Assembly: GCA_017619375.1 (NCBI GenBank)
Contig: JAFZSL010000002.1
Coordinates: 23,679 to 87,678 of the forward strand
Length of the DNA stretch: 64,000 nt
Origin: Prevotella sp.
GTDB taxonomy: Bacteria > Bacteroidota > Bacteroidia > Bacteroidales > Bacteroidaceae
Direction: 5' to 3'
Under the pieces are notes generated by a model that saw nothing but the letters and a program-made list of their open reading frames with translations, had not been told where the DNA came from and ran no database searches. The position numbers were made by a program, and so were the translations under genes. This document shows positions 43,876-60,150 of this stretch, piece by piece. Numbering within the stretch: position 1 is the stretch's first letter; every line of letters starts with the position of its first letter.

Positions 43876-43885
43876 CCCCTTTGTG

Positions 43886-43943
43886 AAAAGTGTTTGAAAA
43901 CATGAGGGATATCAGCGTATTTCTCATGTTTTCAAACACTTTT
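43886..43943. terminator. Perfect 21-bp inverted repeat with 16-nt loop (terminator and/or regulatory site)
   Basis: AAAAGTGTTTGAAAACATGAG (43886-43906) and CTCATGTTTTCAAACACTTTT (43923-43943). Confidence 0.6.
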
Positions 43944-44094
43944 TCGTAGTTGAAACAAAAACGAAACGTTTTGAAACGTTTTTGAAAGGATGTAAAGTTA
44001 AAACATAAACTGGTGCGACAATTATTATTGTTCTTCTCATTTTAAAGAAGTAATTTTGCACAAAACAAATTACAAGTTTAACGCAATCTTTTTT

Positions 44095-46635
44095 ATGGTA
44101 ACCGAAAAGACATTATGGAGCCATCGTCGTAACCGGCTGTTAATGGCTTGCTTTGTGTTGGCTGCGGGCTTTTCCATGACCTCTTGCTCTGATGAGTATG
44201 ATTTGGATGAGCGGTCCCCGGAAGGATGGGGGTCGAGCATCTACAATTGGCTTGTGGAAGACGGCAACTACACCAACACCGTTCGGATGATTGAGGACTT
44301 GGACTACAAGGAAGTGCTTGCAAAGACGGGTTCCAAAACCCTCTTTGTCGCTGACGACCAAGCCTACTCACGATTCTTCCAGAACAACAGTTGGGGGGTG
44401 AGAAGCTATGAGCAATTCTCCACTTCCCAGAAGAAATTGCTGCTCTTCGGCAGCATGATGGACAACTCGATGCAGCTCAACAGCCTGCCGAGTGTGGAGG
44501 GAACGCCACCCCGTGAGGGAGAGTGCATGAGGCGCTTCGCCTCCAACACGCCCTACGACTCCGTGGCCATACTCTATCCCCAACAGATGCCCGACAATCC
44601 TTATTGGGCACGTTACAGGGAGTCAGGCAAACCGATGGTGTGCATGACCGACAATTCCGTCGTGCCGCTTGTGCAGTTCATCGAGAAACAGTTGGTCAAC
44701 AAGCGCATCACCAACAACGACTACGACTTCCTCTACAACAAGACCACCCACAGGGTTTCTGGCGATGCCAGCATCAACGGCGTGCAGGTGGAATCTCCCA
44801 ACATCAAGTGCTCCAACGGTTTCATCCACAAGATGAGCGAGGTCATCATGCCCTTGCCCAACATGGCAGAACTGGTGGCGAAGAAGCCCAATGTCAGCAC
44901 TTACAACAAGTTGCTGGAACGTTTCTGCGCACCCTACTGGGTGGGAGAGGCTGTCACCACGCAGTATAATTATCTTTATGACCAAAATGTGGACTCCGTC
45001 TTCCAGAAGCGCTTCTTCTCCGAGAAGTCACAAGGCGGCAACCCGCTCAGCGCCACACCCACCAACGGTGCCGTCAACGGACTGTTGAAGTATGACCCTG
45101 AATGGAACGCCTACTACGCAGGACTCGACGACCAAGGCGGCAACATCGCCTTGCAGCGCGACATGGCCGTGATGATGGTCCCGAGCAACGAGGCCATGGA
45201 GGAATATTGGGAGTCGGGTGCCGGTCGTGTGCTGAAGGACTATTACGGTACTTGGGAGAACGTTCCAGACGAGGTGGTGGTGAAACTGCTGAACAACAAC
45301 ATGCTCAGTTCTTTCGTCTCCTCTGTCCCTTCCAAGTTCCAAGGCATCCTCAACGATGCCAACGACCCCATGGGCGTTGAGGTGTCGGCCATCGACTCTG
45401 TTTGGCTTGGCTGCAACGGCGCCATCTACCTTACCAACCACGTCTATTCACCCACCGCTTACGTCAGCGTCTCCTTCCCGGCCTTGGTCAACGAGAGCAT
45501 GAAGATCATCTATTGGGGCATCGAGCAGTTGCAGTATAATGTATACCTCAACTCCCTCAACTCCTACTACAGTTTCTTCATCCCCACCAACAAGGCGTTG
45601 CTGGAGTATGTCGACCCCGTCTCCTATGGCAAGAATCAGACACAACTCTTCAGGTTCCATTACGACCCCACCAAGGTCAACGTGGAAGACAGGGTGTGGG
45701 CCAGCATCTATAACTACGATCCGGTGACTGAGACCCTGGGCGACTCCATCGGAAGAGCAGGATACGAGATGGTGAGAAACCGCTTGAAGGACATCCTCGA
45801 CACCCATATCGTCATCGGCAATGTGGAGGACGGCCAGACTTACTACCGCACGAAGGGTGGTACGGAAATCAAGGTCACCAACGTGCATGCTGGCGCCAAC
45901 GGCATGACCGTGGAAGGCAGTTACCAGACCAACGAGAGTACTCCCCTCAGGGTGAATTACATCTACGACCAAACCGATGGTGGCAACGGCAAGAGTTACA
46001 TTCTCGATGACAAACCCATCATGGGAACGAGGCAGACCGTGAGGGACGTCCTCGCCAGCAAGCCGGAATTCTCCAAATTCCTCGAGTTGATGGACGGCAG
46101 CGGCTTGTTCGAGCAGATCCACAACCGTCGCAATGCTTGTGGCGGCACCAATGTCTCCGTCTTCAACACCTATCATTATACCATCTACGTCCCCACCAAC
46201 GAGAGCATCACCGAGTTGCAGAGACAAGGCAAACTCTCCTCCTGGGAGGCTGTCGATGCTTTCGAAGAGGCTGGCAACCTCACCGCCAAGACCCGCGACT
46301 CGTTGCAGATTGTCAACTTCTTGAAGTACCACATCCAGGACAACGCCCTCTTCATCGGCGCTGGTGAGGATTCCGGCGACTTCGAGACCGCTGTCATCGA
46401 CCCCGCCACCGAGCGCTTCTACAGGGTTACCGCACGCCTCACCGCCAACGGCATAGAAATTGTCGACCATGCGCGCAACACCCGCCATGTGGTCACTTCC
46501 AACCCCTCGCTCTACAACTTGGTGGCTCGTGAATTCCAGTACAACACCGCTGATGCGTCGAGTTCCAGTCAGATTGAGACTTCCTCCTCGGCAGTCATCC
46601 ATCTCATCGACCAACCACTGATGATACAGAATTGA
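44095..46635 (+). CDS. Multi-fasciclin (FAS1) domain lipoprotein
   Basis: Lipobox FSMTSC; KTLFVADDQAY; CSNGFIHKMSEVI; YSFFIPTN; YTIYVPTN; VIHLIDQPL; TAATTTTG at 44051-44058. Start at ATG 44095 preferred. Confidence 0.82.
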   Translation: MVTEKTLWSHRRNRLLMACFVLAAGFSMTSCSDEYDLDERSPEGWGSSIYNWLVEDGNYTNTVRMIEDLDYKEVLAKTGSKTLFVADDQAYSRFFQNNSWGVRSYEQFSTSQKKLLLFGSMMDNSMQLNSLPSVEGTPPREGECMRRFASNTPYDSVAILYPQQMPDNPYWARYRESGKPMVCMTDNSVVPLVQFIEKQLVNKRITNNDYDFLYNKTTHRVSGDASINGVQVESPNIKCSNGFIHKMSEVIMPLPNMAELVAKKPNVSTYNKLLERFCAPYWVGEAVTTQYNYLYDQNVDSVFQKRFFSEKSQGGNPLSATPTNGAVNGLLKYDPEWNAYYAGLDDQGGNIALQRDMAVMMVPSNEAMEEYWESGAGRVLKDYYGTWENVPDEVVVKLLNNNMLSSFVSSVPSKFQGILNDANDPMGVEVSAIDSVWLGCNGAIYLTNHVYSPTAYVSVSFPALVNESMKIIYWGIEQLQYNVYLNSLNSYYSFFIPTNKALLEYVDPVSYGKNQTQLFRFHYDPTKVNVEDRVWASIYNYDPVTETLGDSIGRAGYEMVRNRLKDILDTHIVIGNVEDGQTYYRTKGGTEIKVTNVHAGANGMTVEGSYQTNESTPLRVNYIYDQTDGGNGKSYILDDKPIMGTRQTVRDVLASKPEFSKFLELMDGSGLFEQIHNRRNACGGTNVSVFNTYHYTIYVPTNESITELQRQGKLSSWEAVDAFEEAGNLTAKTRDSLQIVNFLKYHIQDNALFIGAGEDSGDFETAVIDPATERFYRVTARLTANGIEIVDHARNTRHVVTSNPSLYNLVAREFQYNTADASSSSQIETSSSAVIHLIDQPLMIQN

Positions 46636-46654
46636 CAATTGAAACAAGACTACT

Positions 46655-49600
46655 ATGGCAACAAATAGAATAAAAAGAATCATTGGAGCAGTCATCCTAT
46701 GCCTCCAATTGTCAGTTCTCAGCATATTTGCACAGAGCCCCGGCGACATCGTCAGCGGCACTGTCAATGACACCTACGGACCTGTCATCGGCGCCAACGT
46801 CGTGGAGCTTGACGGCGCCAACCGTATCGTCGCCTCCACGGTGACCGACATCAACGGCAACTTCTCTTTGAAGATCGTGTCACCCAAGAACAAGTTGCGT
46901 TTCACCTATGTGGGCCACAAGACCGTCACCCAGTCCATCAACAAACTCAAGTATGACATCATGATGGGTGACGAGGAGCAACTCGACGAGGTTGTCGTCC
47001 TCTCCAAGAAACGTGCGGGAGGCTCTGGACTGGCCATTCCGGTCGATGAGATCTCCACCGCCCGTGAAAGCATCAACATGTCGGAGTTCGAGGGACTATC
47101 CATCACCACCGTCGACGAGGCGCTGCAAGGACGTATCGCAGGTCTCGACATCGTGGCCAACTCCGGCAACCTGGGTGCCGGCACCTCCATGCGCTTGCGT
47201 GGTGTGTCGAGTATCAACGGCTCCAGCGAGCCCCTCATCGTCGTCGATGGCAACGTATGGGAAACCAACACCAACAATTTCGACTTCTCTTCCGCCAATG
47301 AGGAGAAGTTCGCAGAACTCCTCAACGTCAACCCGGAGGACATCGAGAGCATCGACGTGCTCAAGGACGCCGCCGCCACCGCCATCTGGGGTTCGCAAGG
47401 TTCCAATGGTGTGATCGAGATCAAGACGAAGCGTGGTACGCGTGGCGCCACCAGGGCCACCTACAGTTTCCGACTCACCGGCACCTATCAGCCCAATGGT
47501 TACAAGATGCTCAATGGTGACGAATACACCATGCTGCTCAAGGAAGAGTATTTCAACCCGTCGATGAGTGATGACGCAAGCAACATCCCGGAGTTGAACT
47601 ACAATCCCAGTTTCCCGGAATACGAGATGTACAACAACAACACCGACTGGTTGAAGGAAGTCAAGCAGATAGGTTGGCGTCAGAACCACTACCTCGCCCT
47701 GAGCGGTGGTGGTGAGAAGGCCCACTTCCGCATCGGTGCCGGCTACGACCATGAGACCGGCTCCATCATCAAGCAGCAACTCGACCGCTTCACCTCACGT
47801 GTCAACCTCGACTATTTCGTCAGCGACCGCATCAAGATCGAGACCAACATCGCCCTCACCTACACCAAGAATGAGAAGAACAACGGCGACCTCCTCTCCA
47901 TCGCTTACACGCGCATGCCCAACCTCTCCATCTACGAGCAGGACAAGTATGGCAACGACCTCGATGAATACTACAGCATGCTACCCACCGTCTCCAACGC
48001 TTTGAGAGACCAGTTGAGCAACAAGAACCCCGTAGCATTGGCCTATCAAGCCAAGAACCACGACACCAGTTACAACATTGAGCCGGAATTCAAGTTGAAA
48101 TATAATTTCTTGGGACTGAGTGTTACGGATACCCAACTCAGTTATGAGGGCAAGGTGGTGTTCAACATCTTCAACCGTTATGAGGACACCTTCATGCCGC
48201 TCTCGCTCAGCACCACGGGATGGAACGACACCGATGGCAAGCAAAGCAACAGGACGACCGCCAACTCCTCCAAGAGTTTCGGTGTCACCACCACCCACAC
48301 GCTCACCTTCACGCCGGTGTTCAAAAACAAGGACCACTACCTCACGATGTTGCTCCGCGGCCAGTTGACCAGTGGCAAGAACAGTTCTCAGAGCACCGTG
48401 GAGTGGGGACTCCCCTCCGGCACCATCACCAGCCCCGCCGCAGCAGGCATCATCGACGGCATCAGCACCGGCAGTGGCCAGTGGAGGAGCATCTATTTCA
48501 CCTATTCCGCACACTATTCTTACAAGGGACGATATGCGGCCGATTTCTCTGTCCGTCGTGACGGCACCACCAAGTTCGGTTCCGACCAACGCTGGGGCAA
48601 CTTCCCCGCACTCTCCTTGAAGTGGCTCATCCACAAGGAGAAGTTCTTCACTGAGCATCTTCCTTGGATTTCCACGTTCTCCGTCCGTCCGGGCTGGGGT
48701 ATCGTGGGCAAGCAACCCGGTTCGGAATACCTTTATTTCAGCAAGTATGCCAATGGAAGCGGGTATATGAACGAGCGAAGCATCTATCCGCAGAACATCC
48801 AGTTGAAAAACCTGAAATGGGAACAGAAAGAGACCTGGAACGTTGGTTTGGACTATGGCTTCTTCAATGAGCGCATCACCGGCAACGTCGAGTTCTACCG
48901 CCAGTACACCACCGACCTGCTGATGAGCGGCAGGGGCATTCCCACCTCGTCGGGTTACAGTCAGTTTGCATGGCAGAACGTGGGTGAGATGAAGAACATC
49001 GGCTGGGAGTTCAACATCAACGGCAACCGCATCATCAGAGCTGGAAAGTTCAGCGTCGATTTCAACGTCACCTTCGCCAACAACAAGAACCAGATCACCG
49101 CCATGGAGGAAACCTGCCTCGCCAGTCTCAACAGTGAGTTTGACCGCAGCAACGGTTCCTACCTTTCCCGCGTGGAACTCAACCGCTCGTTGGGCAGCAT
49201 CTACGGCTTCCGCTACAAGGGTGTCTATCAATACTCCGACTACTCACCTGAGGAAATCAAGGGTGTCAGCGGTCCCAACGCCCCCGTTGTCAGGGATGAA
49301 AACGGCGTGGTCATCATCGACGAGAACGGCATGACCAAGCCGATGACCTTCTGCTACGGGTCTGTCAACTATGAGTTCCGTGGTGGCGACGCCATCTACG
49401 AGGATGTCAACCACGACGGCCAAATCAACGAACTTGACATCGTCTATCTCGGTTCGTCACTGCCAAAGTTCACCGGAGGTTTTGGTTTCAAACTCAATTT
49501 CGGCCGTTTCACCTGGAACAATCAGTTCAACTTCAGGTATGGCAATAAAATAGTGAACCGCGCGCGCATGCGTGTAGAGAATATGTATTCCAACAACAAC

Positions 49601-49951
49601 CAGAGCCGCGCCGTCAATTGGAGATGGCGTGTCGAGGGTGATGTCACGGAAATACCACGCGCACTCTATCAGTATGGTTACAACTGGTTGGGAAGCGACC
49701 GCTTCGTGGAAGACGGGTCGTTCATCAGGCTCAATTACTCGCAGATCAGTTACAGTCTTGATCCCAAAATGCTCAAGAAATGGGGACTGAAGCAAGTGAG
49801 TTTCTATGTCTCGGCCAACAACTTGTTCTGCCTCACCAAATATTCCGGTGCTGACCCGGAAGTAGGCTACGGTTCGTTCGGATTGGTGACCGACGAAGCC
49901 AAGACACCTCGCTCGAAATCTTTCACAGGAGGCATAACGATTCAATTCTAA
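46655..49951 (+). CDS. SusC/RagA family TonB-dependent transporter
   Basis: N-terminal extension ending LDEVVV; plug LQGRIAG..MRLRGVSS..PLIVVDG..NPEDIESIDVLKDAAATAIWGSQGSNGVIEIKTKRG; LKWEQKETWN; RFVEDGSFIRL; terminal Phe. Confidence 0.97.
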   Translation: MATNRIKRIIGAVILCLQLSVLSIFAQSPGDIVSGTVNDTYGPVIGANVVELDGANRIVASTVTDINGNFSLKIVSPKNKLRFTYVGHKTVTQSINKLKYDIMMGDEEQLDEVVVLSKKRAGGSGLAIPVDEISTARESINMSEFEGLSITTVDEALQGRIAGLDIVANSGNLGAGTSMRLRGVSSINGSSEPLIVVDGNVWETNTNNFDFSSANEEKFAELLNVNPEDIESIDVLKDAAATAIWGSQGSNGVIEIKTKRGTRGATRATYSFRLTGTYQPNGYKMLNGDEYTMLLKEEYFNPSMSDDASNIPELNYNPSFPEYEMYNNNTDWLKEVKQIGWRQNHYLALSGGGEKAHFRIGAGYDHETGSIIKQQLDRFTSRVNLDYFVSDRIKIETNIALTYTKNEKNNGDLLSIAYTRMPNLSIYEQDKYGNDLDEYYSMLPTVSNALRDQLSNKNPVALAYQAKNHDTSYNIEPEFKLKYNFLGLSVTDTQLSYEGKVVFNIFNRYEDTFMPLSLSTTGWNDTDGKQSNRTTANSSKSFGVTTTHTLTFTPVFKNKDHYLTMLLRGQLTSGKNSSQSTVEWGLPSGTITSPAAAGIIDGISTGSGQWRSIYFTYSAHYSYKGRYAADFSVRRDGTTKFGSDQRWGNFPALSLKWLIHKEKFFTEHLPWISTFSVRPGWGIVGKQPGSEYLYFSKYANGSGYMNERSIYPQNIQLKNLKWEQKETWNVGLDYGFFNERITGNVEFYRQYTTDLLMSGRGIPTSSGYSQFAWQNVGEMKNIGWEFNINGNRIIRAGKFSVDFNVTFANNKNQITAMEETCLASLNSEFDRSNGSYLSRVELNRSLGSIYGFRYKGVYQYSDYSPEEIKGVSGPNAPVVRDENGVVIIDENGMTKPMTFCYGSVNYEFRGGDAIYEDVNHDGQINELDIVYLGSSLPKFTGGFGFKLNFGRFTWNNQFNFRYGNKIVNRARMRVENMYSNNNQSRAVNWRWRVEGDVTEIPRALYQYGYNWLGSDRFVEDGSFIRLNYSQISYSLDPKMLKKWGLKQVSFYVSANNLFCLTKYSGADPEVGYGSFGLVTDEAKTPRSKSFTGGITIQF

Positions 49952-49970
49952 TATGGAAAATATTACCATT

Positions 49971-51653
49971 ATGACAGATAAAATCAAACATATCATGGTT
50001 GCCGCATCCCTGGTGTTCACTCTGACGGGATGCTCCGACTTCCTCGACATCCTCCCCATGAACGAGGTGGTGCTCGAAAACTTCTGGACGGAGAAAGGCG
50101 ACGTGACCAGCGTGGTGAACAGTTGCTATGAAACGCTCGAAAGCGGAGACTGCCTCACCAGGATGGGCGTATGGGGAGAGTTGCGCTCCGACAACCTCAG
50201 ACTCGGTGGTTCAGTGCCCAACGAGATCAATGAAATCCTCAAGGAGAACCTTCTCCCCTCTAACCCCATGTGCAGTTGGGCGAGTTTCTATGTGGCTATC
50301 AACCGTTGCAACACCGTTTGCCATTATGCACCGATGGTGCAGGAAATCGACCCCAATTACACGTTGGAGGAGATGAAGGCGAACATAGCGGAGGCTTCCG
50401 CCATCAGGGCGCTCTGCTATTTCTACCTCATCCGCACCTTCCGCGACGTGCCCTACACCACCCAGCCCAGCATTGACGACACACAGAATTACATTCTCCC
50501 CGCCACGCCGTTCAATGCCGTGCTCGACTCTCTCATCACCGACCTCGAGAAGGTGAAGGACGACGCTGTCAGGAGATATTATCAAGATGACAGCCCCAAT
50601 GCCTACCAGAACTCGAGCAAGATTACACGTTGGGCCATCTACGCCTTGCTTGCCGACCTCTACCTGTGGAAAGGCGACTGGGACAACTGCATCAAGTATT
50701 GCGACTTGGTCATCGATTTCAAGAGGGAGCAATACAAGGAGATGATCGAGCGTGAAGGCAATGTCAACAACATCGCGCTCTTCGGCGACATCCCCATGAT
50801 CCTGGAGAAGCCCGTGGGCAGCACCGTCTGCGGCAACGCCTACAACGAGATTTTTGGAGAGGGCAACTCCTTCGAAAGCATCTTTGAATTGTATTTCCGC
50901 TCCAACCAGAGCCAGCAGAACTCATGGGTGAGCAGTTATTACGGTAACAACAACACCACCATGGGACGCCTCAGCGCGCCCGACTTCCTCTGCAAGGATG
51001 CCGCTTTGGGAAACAACCTGATTTTCAAGAAAACCGACGGAAGAGTGTATGAGTCCACCGAACTCGACAACTCCAGTTACGCCATTACGAAGTTCGTGAG
51101 AAGGAGCGTGAGTTATTCCACCCAGAACGTCACGAAGGAGTCCGACCTCAACTTGTCGAGTTCACGTCGTTCCAGCGCCGATGCCAACTGGATCTTCTAC
51201 CGTCTCAGCGACATGCTGCTCATCAAGGCGGAGGCAGAGATACAGCGTGGCGAGGGCGGTTACGAAAGGGCTTTCAACCTCATCAACATCGTCAACAAGA
51301 GGGCTAACGACGTCATCAACAATGCTCGCACAGACACGTTGAAGATGGGCGACTATGTCACTTCCAAGGCTTCCATGGAGGAACTTCTGATGGAAGAGCG
51401 CCAGAGAGAGTTCATGTTCGAAGGAAAGCGTTGGTTCGACCTTGTCAGGGTGGCAAGGAGGGATGGCAACAACACCAGGCTCATCTCTCTCGCCTCAAGG
51501 AAATACATCGAGAATGTCAATGCCATCAAGATCAAACTCGCCGACCCCAACATCATCTACTTCCCCTATGCGAAGAGCGAACTCAAGGTGAACCCGCTGC
51601 TTGTGCAGAACCCCGCGTTCGGCAACGAGGAAGACAATGAACTGACCAAATAA
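49971..51653 (+). CDS. SusD/RagB family lipoprotein
   Basis: Lipobox TLTGC; FYVAINRCN; RALCYFYLIRTFRDVP; ALLADLYLW; YRLSDMLLIKAEA; ERQREFMFEGKRWFDLVR; LVQNPAF. Confidence 0.96.
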   Translation: MTDKIKHIMVAASLVFTLTGCSDFLDILPMNEVVLENFWTEKGDVTSVVNSCYETLESGDCLTRMGVWGELRSDNLRLGGSVPNEINEILKENLLPSNPMCSWASFYVAINRCNTVCHYAPMVQEIDPNYTLEEMKANIAEASAIRALCYFYLIRTFRDVPYTTQPSIDDTQNYILPATPFNAVLDSLITDLEKVKDDAVRRYYQDDSPNAYQNSSKITRWAIYALLADLYLWKGDWDNCIKYCDLVIDFKREQYKEMIEREGNVNNIALFGDIPMILEKPVGSTVCGNAYNEIFGEGNSFESIFELYFRSNQSQQNSWVSSYYGNNNTTMGRLSAPDFLCKDAALGNNLIFKKTDGRVYESTELDNSSYAITKFVRRSVSYSTQNVTKESDLNLSSSRRSSADANWIFYRLSDMLLIKAEAEIQRGEGGYERAFNLINIVNKRANDVINNARTDTLKMGDYVTSKASMEELLMEERQREFMFEGKRWFDLVRVARRDGNNTRLISLASRKYIENVNAIKIKLADPNIIYFPYAKSELKVNPLLVQNPAFGNEEDNELTK

Positions 51654-51682
51654 GCACCGCAAACCTTTAACAGATAAGAATC

Positions 51683-53608
51683 ATGAAGAAATTACCCATA
51701 TTCCTATTCGCCGTCCTGGTCATTTGCGCTGTCGCTTCATGCGTCGATAATGACGACGACGTTCCCATGAACTACTACCAGTCGAAGAAGGTCACTGCGG
51801 CAGGCTTCCTGGAGGAGAACCAGGAGCAGTTCAGTGAGTTCATCGCCATCCTCAAGCGGACGCCATATTTCTCCATGCTGTCCACTTATGGCACCTACAC
51901 CCTCTTCGCCCCCAACAACGAAGCCATCGGAAGGTATCTCAGCCGCTCCGGATACGGCAATGTGGACAACATCCCCACTGAGACTTGCGACACCCTTGCG
52001 CGCACGCACATCATCAAGAAGGGTGCCTTCTTCACCACCGACATCGGCGAGGGTGCCTTGCCCGAACTCAACATGGACGATTCCTACATCGTCCTCTCGA
52101 GCGACTCCGATGTCAACAACCACAATGCGCTCGTCTATTACATCAACAAGAACTCCAAGATGATCGACTACAATGACTCCGTCACCAACGGTGTCGTCCA
52201 CGTCATCAACAACGTCATCTCCTCCAGCAGCCTCCTCCTCCCCGACAAGATTGCAGAGGACCCGGAACTCACCCTATTCTCGCAGGCACTCAGCCTCACC
52301 GGAATGTGCGACTCGCTGGTGAAATATCTCGATGAGTCCTACTATTGCAGCGAGGACTCCGTGCATGAGGGCGTGATGGTGCGATGCACCTCAGGTTCAG
52401 CCCTCTACACCCGTTCGTTCTGGCCGGAGAAGCGCTATTTCAAGTACACCGCCTTCGTCGAACCGGACTCCGTCTATCGGAACAAGGGCATCAACAACAT
52501 AGAAGACCTCAAGGCCTACGCCAAGAGCGTCTATGACCAGACCTTCCCCGAAGATGCCGGAAAATACGACGACAATCCCAAGGACCGCAGGAACCCGCTC
52601 AACCGCTTCGTCAGTTACCATCTTCTGCCCCGCATCGGACAATACAACAGTTGGGTGATGTCTGGAGAGTTGAGGGAGCACTGCTGGTACACCTCGCTCA
52701 GCGACCCAGAGGAGTTCTATGAGACGATGTGTCCCGGCACCATCATGAGGTTTGCCGGACCATCCGCAGGCCTCTTCATCAACCGCAAGGGTTTGCAGAA
52801 CAGGTTCACCGTGCGCGGTGTCAAGGTTCTCTCCCCATCTGAGTCAGGCTCCACCGACCAGAATGCACTCAACGGCGTCTATCACTATCTCGACGACATC
52901 CTCGCCTACACCCCGGAAGTCAGGGACGTGGTGCTCAACTGCCGCATCCGCATCGATGCCACCGTGCTGAGTCCCGACTTCATGAACTGCAACGGACGTG
53001 GGCGCTACGGAGAGGACATCCTCACCGGCTTCAAGAACCAGTACATCACCGACTGGAAGGTGAGCGACGAAACCTATGTGGGCGTGCATAGCGACGTGGG
53101 CTATTGGAACTCCTACCAGGCCAACGCCGTCTGTATCAGTGGTGTCTTCGACGTGGCCTTCAAACTCCTCCCCGTGCCTTCGGGCACCTATGAGGTGAGG
53201 CTCGGCTACACCGTGGGCGAGGAACGTGGCGTCGTGCAAGTCTATCTCAACAACGAGCCTTGCGGCATCCCTGTCGACCTCAGGGTCTATGGTCCCGACC
53301 CCAACATCGGATGGATGGAGGACACAGACGACGAGGAAGAGAACAGGGCCAACGACAAGGCCATGCACAACAGGGGTTACATGAAAGGCATGGACAGTTA
53401 CCGTCCATGGGATGCCGACCATCCTCTTCGTGGCAACAACTGGAACCTCAGAAGGGTCCTTGCCACGCAGTACCTCGACTCCAACAAGACTTATTACCTG
53501 CGCTTCCGCCAGGTGCTCGACGACCCGGACCGTTACTGGTCCTTCGACTACATCGAACTTTGCCCGAAGAGCATCTATGGAAGTCCTGAGGGAGAAGATA
53601 CGCATTAA
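51683..53608 (+). CDS. Fasciclin-domain lipoprotein (SusE-positioned)
   Basis: Lipobox AVASC; YTLFAPNNEAI; NGVVHVINNVI; YTAFVEPD; NGVYHYLDDIL; C-terminal beta-sandwich GTYEVRLGY..DYIELCP. Confidence 0.82.
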   Translation: MKKLPIFLFAVLVICAVASCVDNDDDVPMNYYQSKKVTAAGFLEENQEQFSEFIAILKRTPYFSMLSTYGTYTLFAPNNEAIGRYLSRSGYGNVDNIPTETCDTLARTHIIKKGAFFTTDIGEGALPELNMDDSYIVLSSDSDVNNHNALVYYINKNSKMIDYNDSVTNGVVHVINNVISSSSLLLPDKIAEDPELTLFSQALSLTGMCDSLVKYLDESYYCSEDSVHEGVMVRCTSGSALYTRSFWPEKRYFKYTAFVEPDSVYRNKGINNIEDLKAYAKSVYDQTFPEDAGKYDDNPKDRRNPLNRFVSYHLLPRIGQYNSWVMSGELREHCWYTSLSDPEEFYETMCPGTIMRFAGPSAGLFINRKGLQNRFTVRGVKVLSPSESGSTDQNALNGVYHYLDDILAYTPEVRDVVLNCRIRIDATVLSPDFMNCNGRGRYGEDILTGFKNQYITDWKVSDETYVGVHSDVGYWNSYQANAVCISGVFDVAFKLLPVPSGTYEVRLGYTVGEERGVVQVYLNNEPCGIPVDLRVYGPDPNIGWMEDTDDEEENRANDKAMHNRGYMKGMDSYRPWDADHPLRGNNWNLRRVLATQYLDSNKTYYLRFRQVLDDPDRYWSFDYIELCPKSIYGSPEGEDTH

Positions 53609-53636
53609 CATCAATCACTAACAGACAAAAATCATC

Positions 53637-55241
53637 ATGATGAACCATAAATATATCATCTGTGCCATCTTCGCCCTCTGCGGCCTCGTTGGTTGTTCAG
53701 AATGGGATGACCATTACGAGGACACCAGCGTGGCTGGAAGTTCCACCACGCTATGGGAGGAACTGAAGGCGAAACCCGAACTCAGTGACTTCTGTCAGGT
53801 GTTGGAGCAGACCAAGGTTTTCAGAATGCACAAGAAGACCCCTGTGAGTTATGCCGACCTGCTCAACAGCGGGCAGTCGTTCACCGTCGTGGCGCCGGTC
53901 AACGGTACTTTCAACAAGGATTCGTTGCTCAATCTCGTGCAGACCAACCAGGGCGACTCCGTCGTGGAGCGATTCTTCGTGCTCAACCACCTCTCGCGCA
54001 CCCTCCGCTCCGTCACACCCGTTCCCGACAACATGTTGCTGCTCAACTCCAAATACGTGGAGGTGGGAGTGGATGCCATCGAGGGTGTTGGGGTCGTCTC
54101 TCCCAACAACCATGCCAAGAACGGCGTGCTCCATGTCACAGCAGGTCCGCTGCCCTATCGCTACAGCCTGTATGAGCAGTTGTGCAACAATACCGGACTC
54201 AACCAGATCGGCACGGTGCTCCGCACCTACCAAGAGGACTATTTCGATGCCGAACACTCCGTTTCCAGCGGCATCGTGGAAGGTGTCCCTGTCTATGTCG
54301 ATTCTGTTGTCATCGAGCGCAACAAGATGTTGCAACGCATCGGATACATCGACTCCGAGGACTCCACCTACATGATGGTCGTCCCCTCCAACCAGGGATG
54401 GGCGAAGGCATGGGAAGAGGCCAGCAAGCATTTTGTCTATGACGAGAAAGTGCAGAAACGCGACTCCTTGCAGCAGTATTGGACCACTCGCGCACTCCTC
54501 GACGACGCCATCTTCAATGTCACCGACCAGAAGTCCGTGCAAGATTCACTCGTCTCCGTGCAATATACACGTTCCACACCGGAATACCACGTCTTCTACA
54601 AGCCGTTCGCACAAGGAGGCATCCTCGCGGGAGCCATGCCGGTGGAGTGCAGCAACGGCCAATTGTATGTCACTCAGGAGTGGCCCTTCAATCCGACAGA
54701 CACCTATTTCAAGGAAATCTGGAGCGAGGCTGAGTCCACGCAACTCATCTTGCAGGAAAAAGACTGCCAGTACAACGTCAGGCACATCTCTTCCGACAGC
54801 ATCTCCAAGGGAGGATACCTGCATGTCATCCCTCGTACCGCCACCTCCAACTGGGAACTCACCTACAAGGTGAACAACACCCTCAGCGGCGACTACGACG
54901 TCTGCGCCATCATCCTGCCCAAGTCGGTTGACAACCCCATCAACCCCAACTTGAAACCATGCAAGTTCAGGGCCACCATCACCTACGTCGATTCCCTCGG
55001 CAACGAGCAGTCGTTCAACTGTGGCAACACACAGTTCAAGACCATCCCCGAGGTGGTGGACACCGTGGTGGTTGCGGAGAACTTCCATTTCCCCGCCTGC
55101 AACTTCGACCAGAACGACATCAAGGTCACTGTGAAACTGACCTGCTCCATCCTGGCGAGAGAGACTTCCACCTATGCTCGTGAGATGTATATCGACTGCA
55201 TCTATCTGAGACCAAGAACCACTAAATCCGAAGAACAATGA
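53637..55241 (+). CDS. Fasciclin-domain lipoprotein
   Basis: Lipobox GLVGC; WDDHY; FTVVAPVN; KNGVLHV; YMMVVPSN; CSNGQLYV; C-terminal IDCIYLRP. Its stop overlaps the next start (ATGA). Confidence 0.82.
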   Translation: MMNHKYIICAIFALCGLVGCSEWDDHYEDTSVAGSSTTLWEELKAKPELSDFCQVLEQTKVFRMHKKTPVSYADLLNSGQSFTVVAPVNGTFNKDSLLNLVQTNQGDSVVERFFVLNHLSRTLRSVTPVPDNMLLLNSKYVEVGVDAIEGVGVVSPNNHAKNGVLHVTAGPLPYRYSLYEQLCNNTGLNQIGTVLRTYQEDYFDAEHSVSSGIVEGVPVYVDSVVIERNKMLQRIGYIDSEDSTYMMVVPSNQGWAKAWEEASKHFVYDEKVQKRDSLQQYWTTRALLDDAIFNVTDQKSVQDSLVSVQYTRSTPEYHVFYKPFAQGGILAGAMPVECSNGQLYVTQEWPFNPTDTYFKEIWSEAESTQLILQEKDCQYNVRHISSDSISKGGYLHVIPRTATSNWELTYKVNNTLSGDYDVCAIILPKSVDNPINPNLKPCKFRATITYVDSLGNEQSFNCGNTQFKTIPEVVDTVVVAENFHFPACNFDQNDIKVTVKLTCSILARETSTYAREMYIDCIYLRPRTTKSEEQ

Positions 55242-58200
55242 GAAAGATACTGATTTTCGTATTGTTGATGGCGGCAGCATCGATGACCGCCCAGGACATG
55301 AAAAACGTGACGGGACAAGTGGTGGATGCCGCGACAGGGAAACCCTTGTCGGGTGTCATGGTCCAGGCCTATGGCGATGCGAGATACTCCACCCTTACTG
55401 ACGAGATGGGCTACTATGTGCTCAAGACACCAGAATACACCCGCTCCATCATCATCAGGGTGGACGGATACAACCTTGAGCAATGCGCAGTGAGGAACGG
55501 CGTGGCCAATGGAAAACTTTACCCGGAAAGTTTTGGCGAACTCTACAATCCCGCCACCAGCGCCACCGCCACTTCAGAGGCTTCCAACTTTGCCAACACC
55601 TCTGAAGTCAGCATCGACCCACTCGTGGCACAACGGATGGCCGCCGATGTCAGGCCGACTACGCTCAGCGGACTACCCGGAATAGGAGGTCGCATGCTCA
55701 TCGGAGGCATCAACTCCTTGAATGCCAACAGCCAACCCTTGGTGGTCATCGACGGAGTCATCATGGATATGCAGTACAACCGTCAGATGCTTCACGACGG
55801 CTACTACAACAACATGCTGGCCAATCTCAATGTCAATGACATCGAGAAAGTGACAGTGCTGAAAAACGGCACCGCCCTCTATGGCGCGAAAGCCGCCGAC
55901 GGCGTCATCCTCATCCAGACCAAGCGCAACAAGAGCATGGCCACCAAGATCGACGTGACCATCAACGGACGCTACGAATTGGTGCCGAAACTTCCCGAGA
56001 TGATGGATGCCGAGGACTACAGGCTTTACACCACGGAATTGCTCGCTGGCAAGACCAAGTTGCAAGGGTCGATGAAATACCTGAACAACGACCCCAACTA
56101 CTTCTACTACAAGCAGTATCACAACCAGACCGATTGGACGAAGGAAGTGTATGAGAATGCCTTCTCCCAGAATTACGGCATCAATGTGCAGGGTGGCGAC
56201 AATGTGGCATCCTACAACCTCTCCGTGGGTTATTCCTTGGGAAACAGCACGCTGAAGAAGAACGATTTCTCCAGGTTCAACATGCGCCTCAATTCTGACA
56301 TCGAGGTCATCAGGGGACTTGACGTCAGATTCGATGCCTCCTACAGCGACCTCGACAGGTCCCTTACCGACGACGGCGCACCCATCGACCCGCTTGAGGG
56401 CGTCATCACCTCGCCGGGATTCCTCAGTTTGGCCAAGGCTCCTTTCCTCTCGCCTTATGCCTACGACATGAACGGCAACCTCAGCCATTATCTCTCCGAG
56501 GCCGACGACTACCTCGAGGGCATGTTCCAAGGCAAGGGAAGACTCGCCAACCCGACGAGCATCCTCGAGAATGGCGATGGCACCAACCGCAACTCCTTCG
56601 GAAGCCGACTCATCATGTTTGCCATCACTCCGAAAGTGAGACTCAACAGGCATCTTAAACTGGCTGAGCATTTCTCCCTTGGACTGGTCAATACCAACGA
56701 GAACTACTACCTCCCCATCATGGGCGTGCCCACCTTCACTGTCAAAGGATTGGATGAAGGAGCCACGTTGCAGAACTATGTTCAGAGCGCATCCGCAAGG
56801 CAGACATCCATCCAAAGTGACACCTATCTCGATTGGAACAACCGTTACGGACCACACCGCATCAACTTGAGGGGTGGCGTGAGGTATCTCACCAGCGAAT
56901 ACAAGTCCACCTGGCAAAGAGGCTACAACACCGGCAACGACAAGACGCCCAATATGAGCAACTCCTTGCAGTTCAAGAAAACCGGTGGTGCCGATGACAA
57001 GTGGAAGGAAATCGCTTGGTATGGCGTGGCAGGATACAACTACGCTGAGCGTTTCTATCTTGATGGTGGCTTCTCCCTCCAGTCCTCCTCTCGCTTTGGC
57101 GATGATGCCGACGGACTGAAACTGGCAGGAGTGGTGTGGGGCCTCTTCCCCAGCATCGAGGCGGCATGGGTGCTTTCCAACGAGAAGTTCCTCGCCAACG
57201 TGAAAGGCATCAACTACCTCAAGATTAATGCAGGATTCGATGTCACCGGCAATGACGACATCGACTACACCGCTTCAAGAAGTTATTTCGTCTCCAACCT
57301 CATGCTCAACAACGAAGTCACAGGACTCTCCATCGGAAACATCGGCAACACCGAACTGAAATGGGAGACCACGAGAAGGGTGACTGCCGGACTGGAAGCC
57401 AATTTCCTCAACAACAGGATCAGCCTCCGGGCCAACGTCTTCAAGAGTTGGACGGAGAACCTCCTCGCCTTGAGACAACTCGCTTGGACCAGCGGCTTGC
57501 AGGAGACTTGGACCAACGCTGGCAAGTTGGAGAACAGCGGCTTTGATGTGAGCCTCAAGGCAAAGGTGCTTGCCCTCAAAGACTTCCAATGGGAGATTGG
57601 TGCATCCGTCGGACATTATTCCAACGAGGTCACCGCACTGCCTGATGGGCGCTCCTTTGAGACGGAAGCCTATGGCGCAAACATCTTGACGAAGGTGGGA
57701 CAACCCGTAGGTGTCTTCTATGGATGGAAGACCAACGGCGTCTATCAGAACACTGCGCAGGCCACCGGCGAAGGTCTCTATATCGACACGCCGACGGGTG
57801 GACGCAGTTATTTCCAAGCCGGTGACATGCGCTTCGCCGACCTCGATGGAAACAAGGTCATCAATGACGCAGACAAATGCATCATCGGAGACCCCAACCC
57901 CGACCTCTATGGAAACATCTTCACCAACCTGACATGGAAGAGGTTCACTCTCTCTGCCGTGTTCAATTACTCCCTTGGCAACGACCTTTACAACTACCAG
58001 CGCTCGCTGCTCGAAGGAGGAAGCCTGTTCCTCAATCAGACCACGGCCATGAACAACCGGTGGAACACCGAGGGACAGTTGACCACCATCCCCAGGGTCA
58101 GTTACAACGACCCGATGGGCAACTCACGCTTCAGCGACAGATGGATAGAGGATGGCAGCTACCTCAGGCTCAGTTCCGTCACCCTCAGTTACCACCTCCC

Positions 58201-58387
58201 CATCATCAGCACCTACTTGCAGGGCATCACCGTGTGGGGTAATGCCTCCAACCTCTTCACTCTCACCAAATACCTGGGAAGCGACCCCGACAGGGCATTG
58301 CCCGGAAGCCAACTTTACCAAGGCATTGACTTCGGATATGTCGCCCCGGGACGCACTTTCTCACTCGGTGTCAATATCAACCTCTAA
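55238..58387 (+). CDS. Second SusC/RagA family TonB-dependent transporter
   Basis: NSQPLVVIDG; NDIEKVTVLKNGTALYGAKAADGVILIQTKR; LKWETT; RWIEDGSYLRL; C-terminus GVNINL. Confidence 0.95.
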   Translation: MRKILIFVLLMAAASMTAQDMKNVTGQVVDAATGKPLSGVMVQAYGDARYSTLTDEMGYYVLKTPEYTRSIIIRVDGYNLEQCAVRNGVANGKLYPESFGELYNPATSATATSEASNFANTSEVSIDPLVAQRMAADVRPTTLSGLPGIGGRMLIGGINSLNANSQPLVVIDGVIMDMQYNRQMLHDGYYNNMLANLNVNDIEKVTVLKNGTALYGAKAADGVILIQTKRNKSMATKIDVTINGRYELVPKLPEMMDAEDYRLYTTELLAGKTKLQGSMKYLNNDPNYFYYKQYHNQTDWTKEVYENAFSQNYGINVQGGDNVASYNLSVGYSLGNSTLKKNDFSRFNMRLNSDIEVIRGLDVRFDASYSDLDRSLTDDGAPIDPLEGVITSPGFLSLAKAPFLSPYAYDMNGNLSHYLSEADDYLEGMFQGKGRLANPTSILENGDGTNRNSFGSRLIMFAITPKVRLNRHLKLAEHFSLGLVNTNENYYLPIMGVPTFTVKGLDEGATLQNYVQSASARQTSIQSDTYLDWNNRYGPHRINLRGGVRYLTSEYKSTWQRGYNTGNDKTPNMSNSLQFKKTGGADDKWKEIAWYGVAGYNYAERFYLDGGFSLQSSSRFGDDADGLKLAGVVWGLFPSIEAAWVLSNEKFLANVKGINYLKINAGFDVTGNDDIDYTASRSYFVSNLMLNNEVTGLSIGNIGNTELKWETTRRVTAGLEANFLNNRISLRANVFKSWTENLLALRQLAWTSGLQETWTNAGKLENSGFDVSLKAKVLALKDFQWEIGASVGHYSNEVTALPDGRSFETEAYGANILTKVGQPVGVFYGWKTNGVYQNTAQATGEGLYIDTPTGGRSYFQAGDMRFADLDGNKVINDADKCIIGDPNPDLYGNIFTNLTWKRFTLSAVFNYSLGNDLYNYQRSLLEGGSLFLNQTTAMNNRWNTEGQLTTIPRVSYNDPMGNSRFSDRWIEDGSYLRLSSVTLSYHLPIISTYLQGITVWGNASNLFTLTKYLGSDPDRALPGSQLYQGIDFGYVAPGRTFSLGVNINL

Positions 58388-58399
58388 AAAGACAGGAAA

Positions 58400-60100
58400 A
58401 TGAAAAAATTACTTCAATTCATCACAGTCATCACCCTGTCGGCCTTCCTCTTCGGCTGCGCCGACCTGATGGAAACCGACTCTGAACTTGTCGAGTTTGA
58501 GGAGGACAACACCCTGAACCATCCCACCGACACCGTCTATAGTGTCATGGGCATCATAGGGAAGATGCAAGTCATCGCCGACCGCACCGTGCTTCTTGGA
58601 GAGGTGAGGGGAGACCTGCTGACCACCACCGATGCCGCCGATGCCGACCTCAAGAGGCTCGCTGCCTTCGATGTCACCACAGACAACAAGTACAATGCCG
58701 TGAGCGACTACTATGCTGTCATCAACAACTGCAACTACTTCATCCAGCATGTCGACACAACGCTGCAACGCAGGGGAAGAACCATCTTCACCTCTGAATA
58801 TGCCGCAGTGAAAGCCTTCAGGGCATGGACCTACCTCCAACTCGCTCTTGCCTATGGCGAGGTGCCCTTGGTCACCGTGCCGGTGATGACGGAACAGGAC
58901 GCCAAGAACGAGATGAACAAGGCCAGGACGGGCATCGTGGATATCTGCAACTTCTTCATTGACGACCTCAAACCCTATGCATTGGTGGAGAAACCAAGAT
59001 ATGGTTCCATCAACGGCATCAGTTCCGAATTCTTCTTCATCCCTGTCAGGGTGTTGCTGGGCGACCTCTGCCTCTGGGCGGGTCGCTATCAGGAGGCCGC
59101 AACATGGTATCATGACTACCTCAACGACAAGAACGAACCGAGGCCTATGAATGCGTCGGCACGCTCCAGATGGAACACCAATATCACCGAGTTCAACCTC
59201 GCGACACCCATCAATGGATACGAAGTCACCAACACCCGCGAGACACTCAGCCTCATCCCGATGGAGGACCGTATTTTCGACGGCGTGGTCAGCGACTTGC
59301 AGAACGTGTATGGTTCCACCCGCGAAAACAACTATTACTTCCAGGTCACGCCTTCACAGGCCATGATGGACTTGTCGGCCGAGCAGACCTATTGCATGGA
59401 GTTCAAGAACGACACCGAGACCGACACCATCTATGTCCCCAAGGTGGGACTCATGAGGGATGTCATGGCAGGAGACTTGAGACTCTATTCCAACTTCTCC
59501 CAGAACTCCGTGGGAGGACAGGATGAGTATTCGGAGTTCTCCACCATCCGTCAGAGCGTCAACAAGGTCACTTCGAGATGGGTGGCCACCTACAGGCTCA
59601 ACATGGTGTATCTGCATTATGCCGAGGCCCTCAACCGCAGTGGACTGCCTCAGTCGGCGATGGCCGTGCTGAAGTATGGCTTGTGCCCAGAGAATGTGGT
59701 GGCATACGTTGACAGTACAGAGCAGGTGGCTGCCGGCAACCTCATCGCCTTTGACAACAACGTCTTCACTCGTGAGAATACCATCGGCATCCACTCCATT
59801 GGGTCGGGCGACTCGCAAGCCAACGGCCTCTACGTCCTTCCCATGCCAAGTGAGCCGATGGCCACCCGTCAGGACACCGTCAATTACCAAATCCCGCTTG
59901 TGGAAGACATGATTGTCAATGAGATGGCCCTGGAGGGTGCTTTCGAAGGCTACCGCTTCTACGACTTGATGAGGATAGCGATGCGCAGAAACGCCCCTGA
60001 ATACCTCGCCATACCCATATCCAAGCGAAATGGCGTGGTGGACGAGGGACTGCGTGCCCGCCTCATGGAAAGGAGAAACTGGTATCTGCCACTGCCTTGA
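58400..60100 (+). CDS. Second SusD/RagB family lipoprotein
   Basis: Lipobox FLFGC; YYAVINNCNYFI; RAWTYLQLALAYGEVP; LLGDLCLW; YRLNMVYLHYAEALN; LEGAFEGYRFYDLMR. Confidence 0.92.
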   Translation: MKKLLQFITVITLSAFLFGCADLMETDSELVEFEEDNTLNHPTDTVYSVMGIIGKMQVIADRTVLLGEVRGDLLTTTDAADADLKRLAAFDVTTDNKYNAVSDYYAVINNCNYFIQHVDTTLQRRGRTIFTSEYAAVKAFRAWTYLQLALAYGEVPLVTVPVMTEQDAKNEMNKARTGIVDICNFFIDDLKPYALVEKPRYGSINGISSEFFFIPVRVLLGDLCLWAGRYQEAATWYHDYLNDKNEPRPMNASARSRWNTNITEFNLATPINGYEVTNTRETLSLIPMEDRIFDGVVSDLQNVYGSTRENNYYFQVTPSQAMMDLSAEQTYCMEFKNDTETDTIYVPKVGLMRDVMAGDLRLYSNFSQNSVGGQDEYSEFSTIRQSVNKVTSRWVATYRLNMVYLHYAEALNRSGLPQSAMAVLKYGLCPENVVAYVDSTEQVAAGNLIAFDNNVFTRENTIGIHSIGSGDSQANGLYVLPMPSEPMATRQDTVNYQIPLVEDMIVNEMALEGAFEGYRFYDLMRIAMRRNAPEYLAIPISKRNGVVDEGLRARLMERRNWYLPLP

Positions 60101-60107
60101 CACCATG

Positions 60108-60150
60108 CTCGGAGGAATTGGAGCAATTTGAATGCTCCGAGTCCTCCGAG
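60108..60150. terminator. Hairpin built of 9-nt GGAG units after SusD2
   Basis: CTCGGAGGA-ATTGGAGCA, 7-nt loop, TGCTCCGAG-TCCTCCGAG. Confidence 0.6.

Follow-up and report, generated by a model that had tools for sequence, protein, structure and literature searches.

Gene order and predicted transcription of a fasciclin-containing SusC/SusD cassette

The stretch of DNA analysed here, referred to below as the window, comprises 64,000 nucleotides of a Prevotella sp. genome (GenBank assembly GCA_017619375.1; 4.26 Mb in 78 contigs), namely C53:23679-87678, where C53 is contig JAFZSL010000002.1. It contains a cassette of seven genes in which three lipoproteins built of fasciclin (FAS1) domains, named FASa, FASb and FASc, are interleaved with two different pairs of SusC-like transporters and SusD-like lipoproteins (Table 1). 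The cassette is a widespread, anciently fixed outer-membrane front end of polysaccharide utilization loci (PULs) for different glycans; the copy in the window, called the study copy in the following, is genuine, but an ordinary representative of a family that has been little described. Gene identities were taken from the listing of open reading frames together with Pfam and NCBIfam profile scans, which confirmed both the order FAS1, SusC1, SusD1, FAS1, FAS1, SusC2, SusD2 on the + strand and the three fasciclin lipoproteins, as claimed in a preliminary description made from the letters alone; indeed, the PF02469 scores of the three proteins (59.3, 57.8 and 34.6 bits) all exceed the gathering cut-off of 22. 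The gaps, there put at 47 nt or less with one overlap, are in fact tighter, amounting from FASa to SusD2 to 19, 1, 29, 28, -4 (the overlap) and 12 nt, with a maximum of 29 nt.

Table 1. Genes and signals of the study copy and its flanks (window coordinates, unless the contig is named)
Feature	Position	Strand	Support
CE1-type esterase (putative feruloyl/acetyl) with CBM48-like stretch	42010..43875	+	PF00756 3.3e-17; CBM_48 2.2e-06; partial NF041944 (feruloyl-esterase half), below cut-off
28-bp hairpin then T run, terminator-like, between esterase and FASa	43885..43944	+	RNA fold -34.8 kcal/mol, z = -9.8, 0/200 shuffles as good; best-ranked terminator-like site
TAATTTTG, putative promoter, 36 nt before the FASa ATG	44052..44059	+	fits the Bacteroides -7 motif TAnnTTTG
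FASa, four tandem FAS1, 846 aa, predicted surface lipoprotein	44095..46635	+	PF02469 5.6e-16
SusC1, SusC/RagA TonB-dependent transporter	46655..49951	+	TIGR04056 8e-212; Plug, CarbopepD_reg_2
SusD1, SusD-family lipoprotein	49953..51653	+	PF07980 4e-25; PF14322 8.8e-13
FASb, two FAS1 and probable C-terminal CBM6/35-like jelly roll, 641 aa, predicted surface lipoprotein	51683..53608	+	PF02469 1.6e-15
FASc, two FAS1 and probable C-terminal CBM22/35-like jelly roll, 534 aa, predicted surface lipoprotein	53637..55241	+	PF02469 2.5e-08
SusC2, divergent SusC/RagA transporter	55238..58387	+	TIGR04056 2.6e-162
SusD2, divergent SusD-family lipoprotein	58400..60100	+	PF14322 2.3e-07; PF07980 8.7e-06
17-bp hairpin directly 3' of the SusD2 stop	60108..60150	+	RNA fold -30.1 kcal/mol, z = -5.6, 0/200 shuffles as good
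1243-aa secreted protein, signal peptidase I (SPI) type signal, short conserved C-terminal tail	60217..63948	+	no Pfam, NCBIfam or PDB match
GH98, 1038 aa, same contig past the window end	C53:87969-91085		PF08306 1.6e-54; PF08307 6.8e-08

In view of the tight gaps, of the hairpins on both flanks and of the promoter-like motif, the seven genes look like a single transcription unit, probably running from the putative FASa promoter to the hairpin after SusD2, while the CE1-type esterase upstream is probably transcribed separately. The -7 consensus TAnnTTTG is the one reportedly described for Bacteroides by Bayley and colleagues in 2000; a sigma-70 promoter scan of the DNA gave nothing better than shuffled sequences, the sigma-70 model being unsuited to Bacteroidota. 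Two pairs of adjacent susC-like (TIGR04056) and susD-like genes with linked carbohydrate-active enzymes agree with a PUL.

Architecture of the fasciclin lipoproteins and history of the two SusC barrels

Iterated profile searches resolve the FAS proteins into consecutive FAS1 units, located by jackhmmer at residues ~50-257, 328-457, 464-640 and 650-846 of FASa; FASb has two units (40-185 and 188-411) followed by ~230 further residues, and FASc two (41-175 and 173-351) followed by ~180. All three carry a lipobox and, after the signal peptide, a stretch rich in acidic residues (MTSC and SDEYDLDE in FASa, VASC and VDNDDD in FASb, LVGC and SEWDDHYED in FASc), and lipoprotein and export-type signals are also present in their orthologues. 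An acidic stretch after the lipobox cysteine is of the type that was reported by Lauber and colleagues in 2016 to send Bacteroidota lipoproteins to the cell surface; on the strength of the lipobox cysteine and of this export signal, FASa, FASb and FASc are predicted to be surface-exposed.

The confident AlphaFold2 models of FASb (22-row alignment; pLDDT 82.8, pTM 0.84) and FASc (20-row alignment; pLDDT 82.9, pTM 0.75) were compared with the PDB by Foldseek. The FAS1 pairs of both proteins match TGFBIp, periostin and fasciclin I with E values between 1e-13 and 1e-7, the best being TGFBIp/periostin at 1e-13 for FASb and periostin at 2.7e-10 for FASc, and single FAS1 domains are matched with a TM-score on the target (TMt) of 0.75-0.84. 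A second group of matches concerns jelly rolls of carbohydrate-binding modules (CBMs): FASb matches the xanthan-binding MiXBM (7ehg; 2.5e-06, TMt 0.71), the CBM35 2w1w (TMt 0.59) and the CBM35s of Xyn30D and Pc1,3Gal43A, while FASc matches the CBM22 of Clostridium thermocellum Xyn10B (2wys, CBM22-GH10, 1.5e-04; 1h6y; 1dyo), the CBM35 2w47 (TMt 0.63) and MiXBM. We infer that these CBM-type matches fall on the C-terminal domains of the two proteins. That of FASb retains the conserved residues G501, Y503, D532 and D622; no Pfam CBM family was matched in FASb or FASc, and searches of PDB sequences returned no Bacteroides FAS1 structure.

Taken as a FAS1 pair plus a CBM-type jelly-roll C-terminal domain in the models, the architecture of FASb and FASc probably corresponds to that of surface glycan-binding proteins (SGBPs), with the FAS1 pair as stalk and a CBM6/22/35-like jelly roll at the distal end. 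The preliminary description proposed that the FAS1 lipoproteins bind glycan; the binding part is probably to be sought in the C-terminal jelly rolls of FASb and FASc and not in the FAS1 domains themselves. FASa, lacking a CBM-like domain, may tentatively be regarded as a scaffold or spacer.

The relationship between the two transporters was analysed in a tree of the 31 SusC-like proteins of the genome and the cassette SusCs of 15 complete loci from other genomes. All SusC1 proteins form one clade (support 100) and all SusC2 proteins another (support 98); since the two are sister clades with mirrored internal branching order, the tree indicates that SusC1 and SusC2 arose by one ancient duplication and were inherited, and re-duplicated, as a unit. 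The two barrels differ at both termini. In an alignment of their N-terminal regions, a TonB-box strand of the LDEVVV type occurs at the junction between the N-terminal extension (NTE) and the plug in 15/15 SusC1 and 0/15 SusC2; in the study copy, SusC1 has the canonical LDEVVV and ends in Phe, and SusC2 has no canonical TonB box at this junction and ends in Leu; these two regions of SusC2 lie at 55238-55760 and 58340-58387 of the window. The corresponding SusC2 region reads GELYNPAT in the clade of the study copy and NETVITPF or NETMVLPF in the C7/Bacteroides-type clade, where these residues might serve as a variant TonB box. The C-terminal residue is Leu in 17/20 SusC2 and Phe in 19/20 SusC1. 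A strict TonB-box motif was matched by 11 of the 20 SusC1, by none of the 20 SusC2 and by 9 of 21 other SusC proteins of the genome; as a discriminator the strict expression was discarded as weak, having picked out only these fractions of SusC1 and of the other SusC proteins, and with merely 9/21 of the latter carrying it, its lack in SusC2 can be taken as suggestive only.

Copies, distribution and neighbours of the cassette

A whole-genome profile scan yielded 12 Fasciclin matches at five places, and BLAST searches against all open reading frames revealed a complete seven-gene copy at each of five locations, namely the study copy on C53, C33:2786-19504, C52:79007-95865, C16:279924-297201 and C7:23287-38852, with every cassette gene resembling most closely its positional counterparts in the other copies. 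The copies are considerably diverged: FASa of the study copy is 30-41% identical to its counterparts on C33, C52 and C16 and weakly similar (~20%) to that on C7, and across all four other copies the identities are 36-56% for SusC1, 21-31% for FASb, 28-50% for SusC2 and 27-42% for SusD2. The genes around them differ as well. The C33 copy has a hybrid two-component system (HTCS) regulator directly after SusD2 and, upstream, a 763-aa protein with a type IX secretion system (T9SS) tail; the C52 copy is accompanied by a GH128-like (PF11790) enzyme with CBM4_9, a LamG/ricin protein and a 1199-aa protein; the C16 copy by a GH43 and a second SusCD pair; the C7 copy by a 904-aa CHB_HEX_C/F5_F8C protein. 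The cassette is, in other words, a reusable front end, present in five diverged copies wired to different neighbours.

Outside this genome, one genome per species was scanned, followed by position-specific hidden Markov models. The full seven-gene order was found in 15 complete loci of other genomes, and about nine more loci are cut by contig ends or frameshifted; the hosts are Prevotellaceae and Bacteroidaceae metagenome-assembled genomes, Alloprevotella, Ca. Colivivens, Prolixibacteraceae, Puteibacter, Saccharicrinis, Draconibacterium, Breznakibacter, Dysgonomonas and Pedobacter superstes. Many of these genomes are multi-copy, with 36 FAS1 matches in Puteibacter and 23 in Pedobacter. When genomes were drawn evenly from the family, 228 of 401 encoded FASb-type proteins, and 20 of 27 genera had them; such proteins are also found in at least 1593 protein clusters, named merely "fasciclin domain-containing protein". 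The cassette order is not due to chance, given the five copies in one genome and the at least 15 complete loci in other genera. As for the "distinct utilisome architecture" of the preliminary description, the order is indeed fixed and fasciclin lipoproteins do stand in place of the SusE/F type, but the arrangement is not unique to this locus, being that of a widespread cassette.

Departures from the seven-gene order were also encountered. Saccharicrinis sp. FJH54 has a six-gene variant without FASc (FASa-SusC1-SusD1-FASb-SusC2-SusD2; locus L035), and FASb-type proteins also occur apart from SusCD pairs. The closest homologue of FASb outside the genus (L029:10001-11968, from a Bacteroidales UBA2559 metagenome-assembled genome) is full-length and 44% identical; it has no SusC or SusD with it and is flanked by a GH10-CBM6-CBM35 xylanase on one side and a GH51 arabinofuranosidase on the other. 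Another FASb-like gene, less closely related and from Prevotellamassilia (L027), stands beside a GH20-ricin protein.

The comparison with Bacteroides was drawn as a link to CHARACTERISED systems, for which loci were read in two genomes (G453 and G314) of a Bacteroides-like genus of the same family; FASb-type genes are present in 10/10 genomes of that genus. Two complete cassettes were found in G453 and one in G314, and in all of them the three FAS positions score above cut-off with the Pfam FAS1 profile. Directly after SusD2, G453 encodes a single protein that matches both a Pel9A-like beta-helix (3e-255) and "Rhamnogalacturonan lyase BT_4170-like, C-terminal" (3.4e-94), beyond which lie a PcRGLX-like enzyme, a GDSL esterase, GH88/105 and PL11; the G314 cassette is flanked by GH28, three PL11 and an HTCS. 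Going by this comparison, the rhamnogalacturonan I (RG-I) locus studied in Bacteroides seems to have the cassette as its core. The two G453 cassettes stand head to head (L109-L111, G453:C38:31001-91000) with a tyrosine-integrase gene between them (L110:8959-10134); the left one is followed by the RG-I enzymes, and the right one by an MG2-domain protein, a further protein and a VapE/BT4734-like gene. Such surroundings suggest arrival on a mobile element.

Turning to the enzymes around the study copy, the preliminary description had spoken of a PUL without any enzyme. No hydrolase is encoded within 44095-60100, but this is a boundary effect, with the CE1-type esterase upstream and a GH98 enzyme downstream; the enzyme-free locus was abandoned once the contig had been read beyond the window, the GH98 gene beginning 291 nt past its end (342 nt after the stop of the gene for the 1243-aa protein), two genes downstream of the cassette. 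This GH98, which carries an SPI signal and ends in a short C-terminal tail, matches PDB 9h6f/g/h at 1e-169 as against 2e-08 for the pneumococcal blood-group enzymes. It is followed on the same strand by a 7TM-HD receptor protein and a dCache-HAMP-SpoIIE-HATPase_c protein (L001:8209-12889; C53:91209-95889). The GH8, GH43, CE1 and CE7 genes that had been noted nearby were confirmed by profile scans; GH8, two GH43, AXE1/CE7 and GDSL genes lie near the cassette, within 35 kb. In the closest GH98-bearing relative (G037, whose proteins are 72-89% identical), cassette, GH98 and a homologue of the 1243-aa protein have been kept together, this last being only 46-48% identical.

The earlier suggestion of xylan as substrate is reasonable, given GH98, CE1, GH8, GH43 and AXE1. 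Considering the CE1 esterase, the xylan-type neighbours and the GH10/GH51 context of the nearest FASb homologue, arabinoxylan is the most likely glycan, and we lean, by a modest margin of confidence, towards a highly decorated, esterified arabinoxylan as the substrate of the study copy.

The 1243-aa protein between cassette and GH98 is more enigmatic. The gene at 60217-63948 had been called CBM4-like, a label that we have dropped, as no Pfam, NCBIfam or PDB match was obtained for its product; together with four other large cassette neighbours it remained without a Pfam match even at E <= 5 and without a PDB match. Its residues 590-761 are 34% identical to residues 838-1001 of the GH98 enzyme, a domain of ~170 aa in the C-terminal part of the latter, and its C-terminal tail is common to six other large proteins, including neighbours of the C52 and C7 cassettes. 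The tail did not match the T9SS sorting profile TIGR04183 at E <= 0.1 (C53:87400-87626), a profile that passes its cut-off in 10 other genes of the genome, among them the 763-aa neighbour of the C33 cassette; identification of the protein as T9SS cargo was accordingly rejected as a tested claim, but the tail, being common to six other large proteins, may be a divergent sorting tail. The protein probably works with the PUL, either at the surface or as a secreted partner. A large (763-1243 aa) secreted protein without known family adjoins four of the five cassettes (in the study copy, at C33:489-2780, at C52:75002-78601 and at C7:38976-41690); the common short C-terminal tail is seen in three of these proteins, and the TIGR04183 T9SS tail in that of C33. 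Such neighbours may be undescribed enzymes or binding proteins working with the cassette.

Interpretation and comparison with known systems

The reading that we consider likely is that the seven genes encode the outer-membrane capture-and-import core of a PUL, with FASb and FASc as its SGBPs, in a copy directed to a xylan of complex type. FASb and FASc would bind the glycan at the surface by their distal jelly rolls, held away on the FAS1-pair stalks, a role supported by the RG-I PUL of B. thetaiotaomicron, in which the gene at the corresponding position is reported to encode an SGBP; FASa, a rod of four FAS1 domains, may act as scaffold or spacer. The adjacent GH98, and perhaps the 1243-aa protein too, would cleave the arabinoxylan at the cell surface, and the CE1 enzyme would de-esterify it; from what is known of the family, two classes of oligosaccharide from the one complex polymer would be imported through the two SusD-lidded SusC barrels, the nearby GH43, GH8, AXE1 and GDSL enzymes completing the breakdown.

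Several observations weigh against this picture. No regulator gene (HTCS, extracytoplasmic function sigma/anti-sigma factor or SusR-like) is found next to the study copy. In two of the GH98-bearing relatives (G023 and G022), out of four, the enzyme is not accompanied by the cassette, so that a fixed link between GH98 and cassette is rejected and the association with the enzyme is modular. The CBM-like assignment is one of moderate fold similarity (TM 0.44-0.75 on target), and the FAS1 nature of the B. thetaiotaomicron proteins BT4163, BT4166 and BT4167 is deduced from the matching positions in the Bacteroides-like genome and from the PF02469 match of the B. thetaiotaomicron control genome.

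The two SusCD pairs are unseparated in 15/15 complete loci and their trees are mirrored, an observation that can also be read, in line with the bridged heterodimer of the preliminary description, as the mark of an obligate hetero-oligomer, in which SusC1D1 and SusC2D2 form a mixed two-barrel complex bridged by FAS1 proteins, SusC1 alone being energized by TonB and SusC2 being dependent, gating or sensing. The TonB-box strand of the (D/E)-E-V-V-V type, absent from all 20 SusC2 and present in every SusC1 of the alignment, the Leu end of 17/20 SusC2 as opposed to the Phe of 19/20 SusC1, and a FASa that is a four-FAS1 rod without CBM-like domain would all fit such a complex; co-inheritance alone, however, explains the mirrored trees, the strict motif is present in just 9/21 other SusC proteins of the genome, and NETMVLPF or NETVITPF could act as TonB box in the Bacteroides-type and C7-type SusC2. 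Moreover, the solved SusCD complexes (BT2261-64, the levan and dextran utilisomes, RagAB) are, to our knowledge, homodimers. We therefore hold the hetero-oligomer to be unlikely, and give a shade less credence again to its most complete form, a single obligate surface machine of all seven proteins, organized by FASa and fed by FASb and FASc, in which SusC1 alone would be coupled to TonB and SusC2 would open dependently. If true, the hetero-oligomer would be the first heteromeric utilisome and would give a reason for the persistence of tandem SusCD pairs.

Two further alternatives concern what the cassette holds on to. FAS1 being best known as an adhesion module, as in its PDB relatives periostin, TGFBIp and fasciclin I, the fasciclin lipoproteins could be adhesins for plant cell-wall particles or other cells, merely co-expressed with the transporters, and the FASb-type proteins standing apart from SusCD pairs (for example L029 and L027) are in line with this; that the positions following SusD belong to SGBPs, that across orders the FAS genes keep a fixed order and number with respect to each SusCD pair, that CBM-like domains end FASb and FASc, and that the B. 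thetaiotaomicron gene at the FASc position is reported to encode an SGBP for soluble glycan, make adhesion as their function improbable. Least credible of all, with very little in our estimate to commend it, is a cargo that is not a plant glycan (glycopeptides, microbial exopolysaccharide or phosphoester polymers), the xylan-type neighbours being then coincidental: several copies have no recognisable carbohydrate-active enzyme nearby (C33 only an HTCS and the T9SS protein, C7 the CHB_HEX_C/F5_F8C protein) and one FASb-like gene lies beside GH20, but GH98, CE1, GH8, GH43 and AXE1 all indicate xylan for the study copy, the closest out-of-genus FASb homologue sits between GH10 and GH51, and HTCS regulators such as that of the C33 copy are typical of glycan PULs.

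Returning to the capture-and-import core, the study copy is probably xylan-directed, and by analogy its kind would already be known as the core of the RG-I PUL. A full-text literature search returned no paper tying fasciclin or FAS1 to SusC/SusD, PUL or TonB loci in Bacteroidota, the hits being plant or unrelated work; as yet undescribed in the searchable literature are the fasciclin nature of the three lipoproteins, their probable design of a FAS1 stalk plus CBM and what the TonB-box-poor second barrel signifies. The cassette is very common: over half of the genomes sampled from the family have FASb-type proteins, and the cassette itself is multi-copy in Prevotella, sediment Bacteroidales and Pedobacter. 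Once recognized as a single evolutionary unit, it supplies PUL annotation with a name for three "hypothetical" lipoproteins and points to a new stalk fold for SGBPs. The study copy itself is a candidate system for complex arabinoxylan, whose 1243-aa secreted partner could be a new enzyme, and B. thetaiotaomicron growing on RG-I offers a tractable model in which to ask why two different SusCD pairs stay together and whether the TonB-box-poor second barrel works alone.

The RG-I PUL of B. thetaiotaomicron, reportedly characterized by Luis and colleagues in 2018, is the system closest in layout. Its SusC/D pairs are BT4164/BT4165 and BT4168/BT4169, its SGBP is BT4167 and its outer-membrane lyase BT4170 (PMC8002723, a review). 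As in the cassette, the two pairs are parted by two genes, and a surface enzyme comes directly after the second SusD; the RG-I-binding SGBP BT4167 occupies the FASc position, the equivalence being positional. With the cassette found as the core of RG-I-type PULs in Bacteroides-like genomes, and with BT4167 as a reported SGBP at the FASc position, one condition that the preliminary description had named as refuting it, an architecture already characterized with a known substrate, applies in part, at the level of the family, the substrate there being RG-I. A search with the Dysgonomonas FASc as query returned Dysgonomonas and Paludibacter proteins and no named B. thetaiotaomicron homologue. The enzymes differ, PL9, PL11, GH28 and GH105 in the RG-I PUL as against GH98, CE1 and the 1243-aa protein at the study locus; the proteins of the study copy are only ~20-35% identical to those of the C7/Bacteroides clade, and its SusC2 lacks even the variant TonB-box-like strand kept in the Bacteroides-type SusC2.

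On the side of the substrate, the nearest parallel is PUL-XylL of B. ovatus (BACOVA_03426-03433; Rogowski et al. 2015), in which two SusC/SusD pairs are followed by non-catalytic surface proteins, and whose GH98, BACOVA_03433, is a surface endo-xylanase cutting only highly decorated corn xylan (PMC4491172). The two loci are alike in their two SusCD pairs, non-catalytic surface proteins, GH98, esterases and GH43s; they differ in that the SGBP of PUL-XylL is an inactive GH10 (BACOVA_03431), accompanied by the protein BACOVA_03430, no fasciclin proteins being described there, in that its GH98 is a lipoprotein, whereas the study locus encodes a GH98 with SPI signal and short C-terminal tail, and in that PUL-XylL has an HTCS and none adjoins the study copy. 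For the C52 copy a different parallel is offered by PUL 10 of Alkalitalea saponilacus, a GH128 and CBM4 PUL in which laminarin induces the SusC/SusD pair CDL62_12310/12315 (PMC13591233): a GH128-like enzyme with CBM4_9 likewise lies beside the C52 cassette, and the substrate of PUL 10 differs from that of the study copy.

The individual FAS1 proteins are best compared with periostin, TGFBIp and fasciclin I (PDB 5yjg, 5nv6 and 1o70), with which they share tandem FAS1 domains, four in FASa as in periostin and TGFBIp; the identity is 12-17%, and the cassette proteins differ in being bacterial and lipid-anchored, in lacking an EMI domain or an integrin context and in the fusion to CBM-like jelly rolls. 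As to the assembly as a whole, the Sus-like utilisomes (starch Sus, levan BT1760-63 and dextran, the last two reportedly described by White and colleagues in 2023) combine, like the cassette, a SusC barrel and its SusD lid with additional surface lipoproteins encoded after susD, each with a distal carbohydrate-binding domain on a stalk. There, however, the stalk is made of Ig-like domains, whereas that of the cassette would be made of FAS1 domains, and in the cassette two different SusCD pairs are accompanied by three accessory lipoproteins, each in a fixed position.

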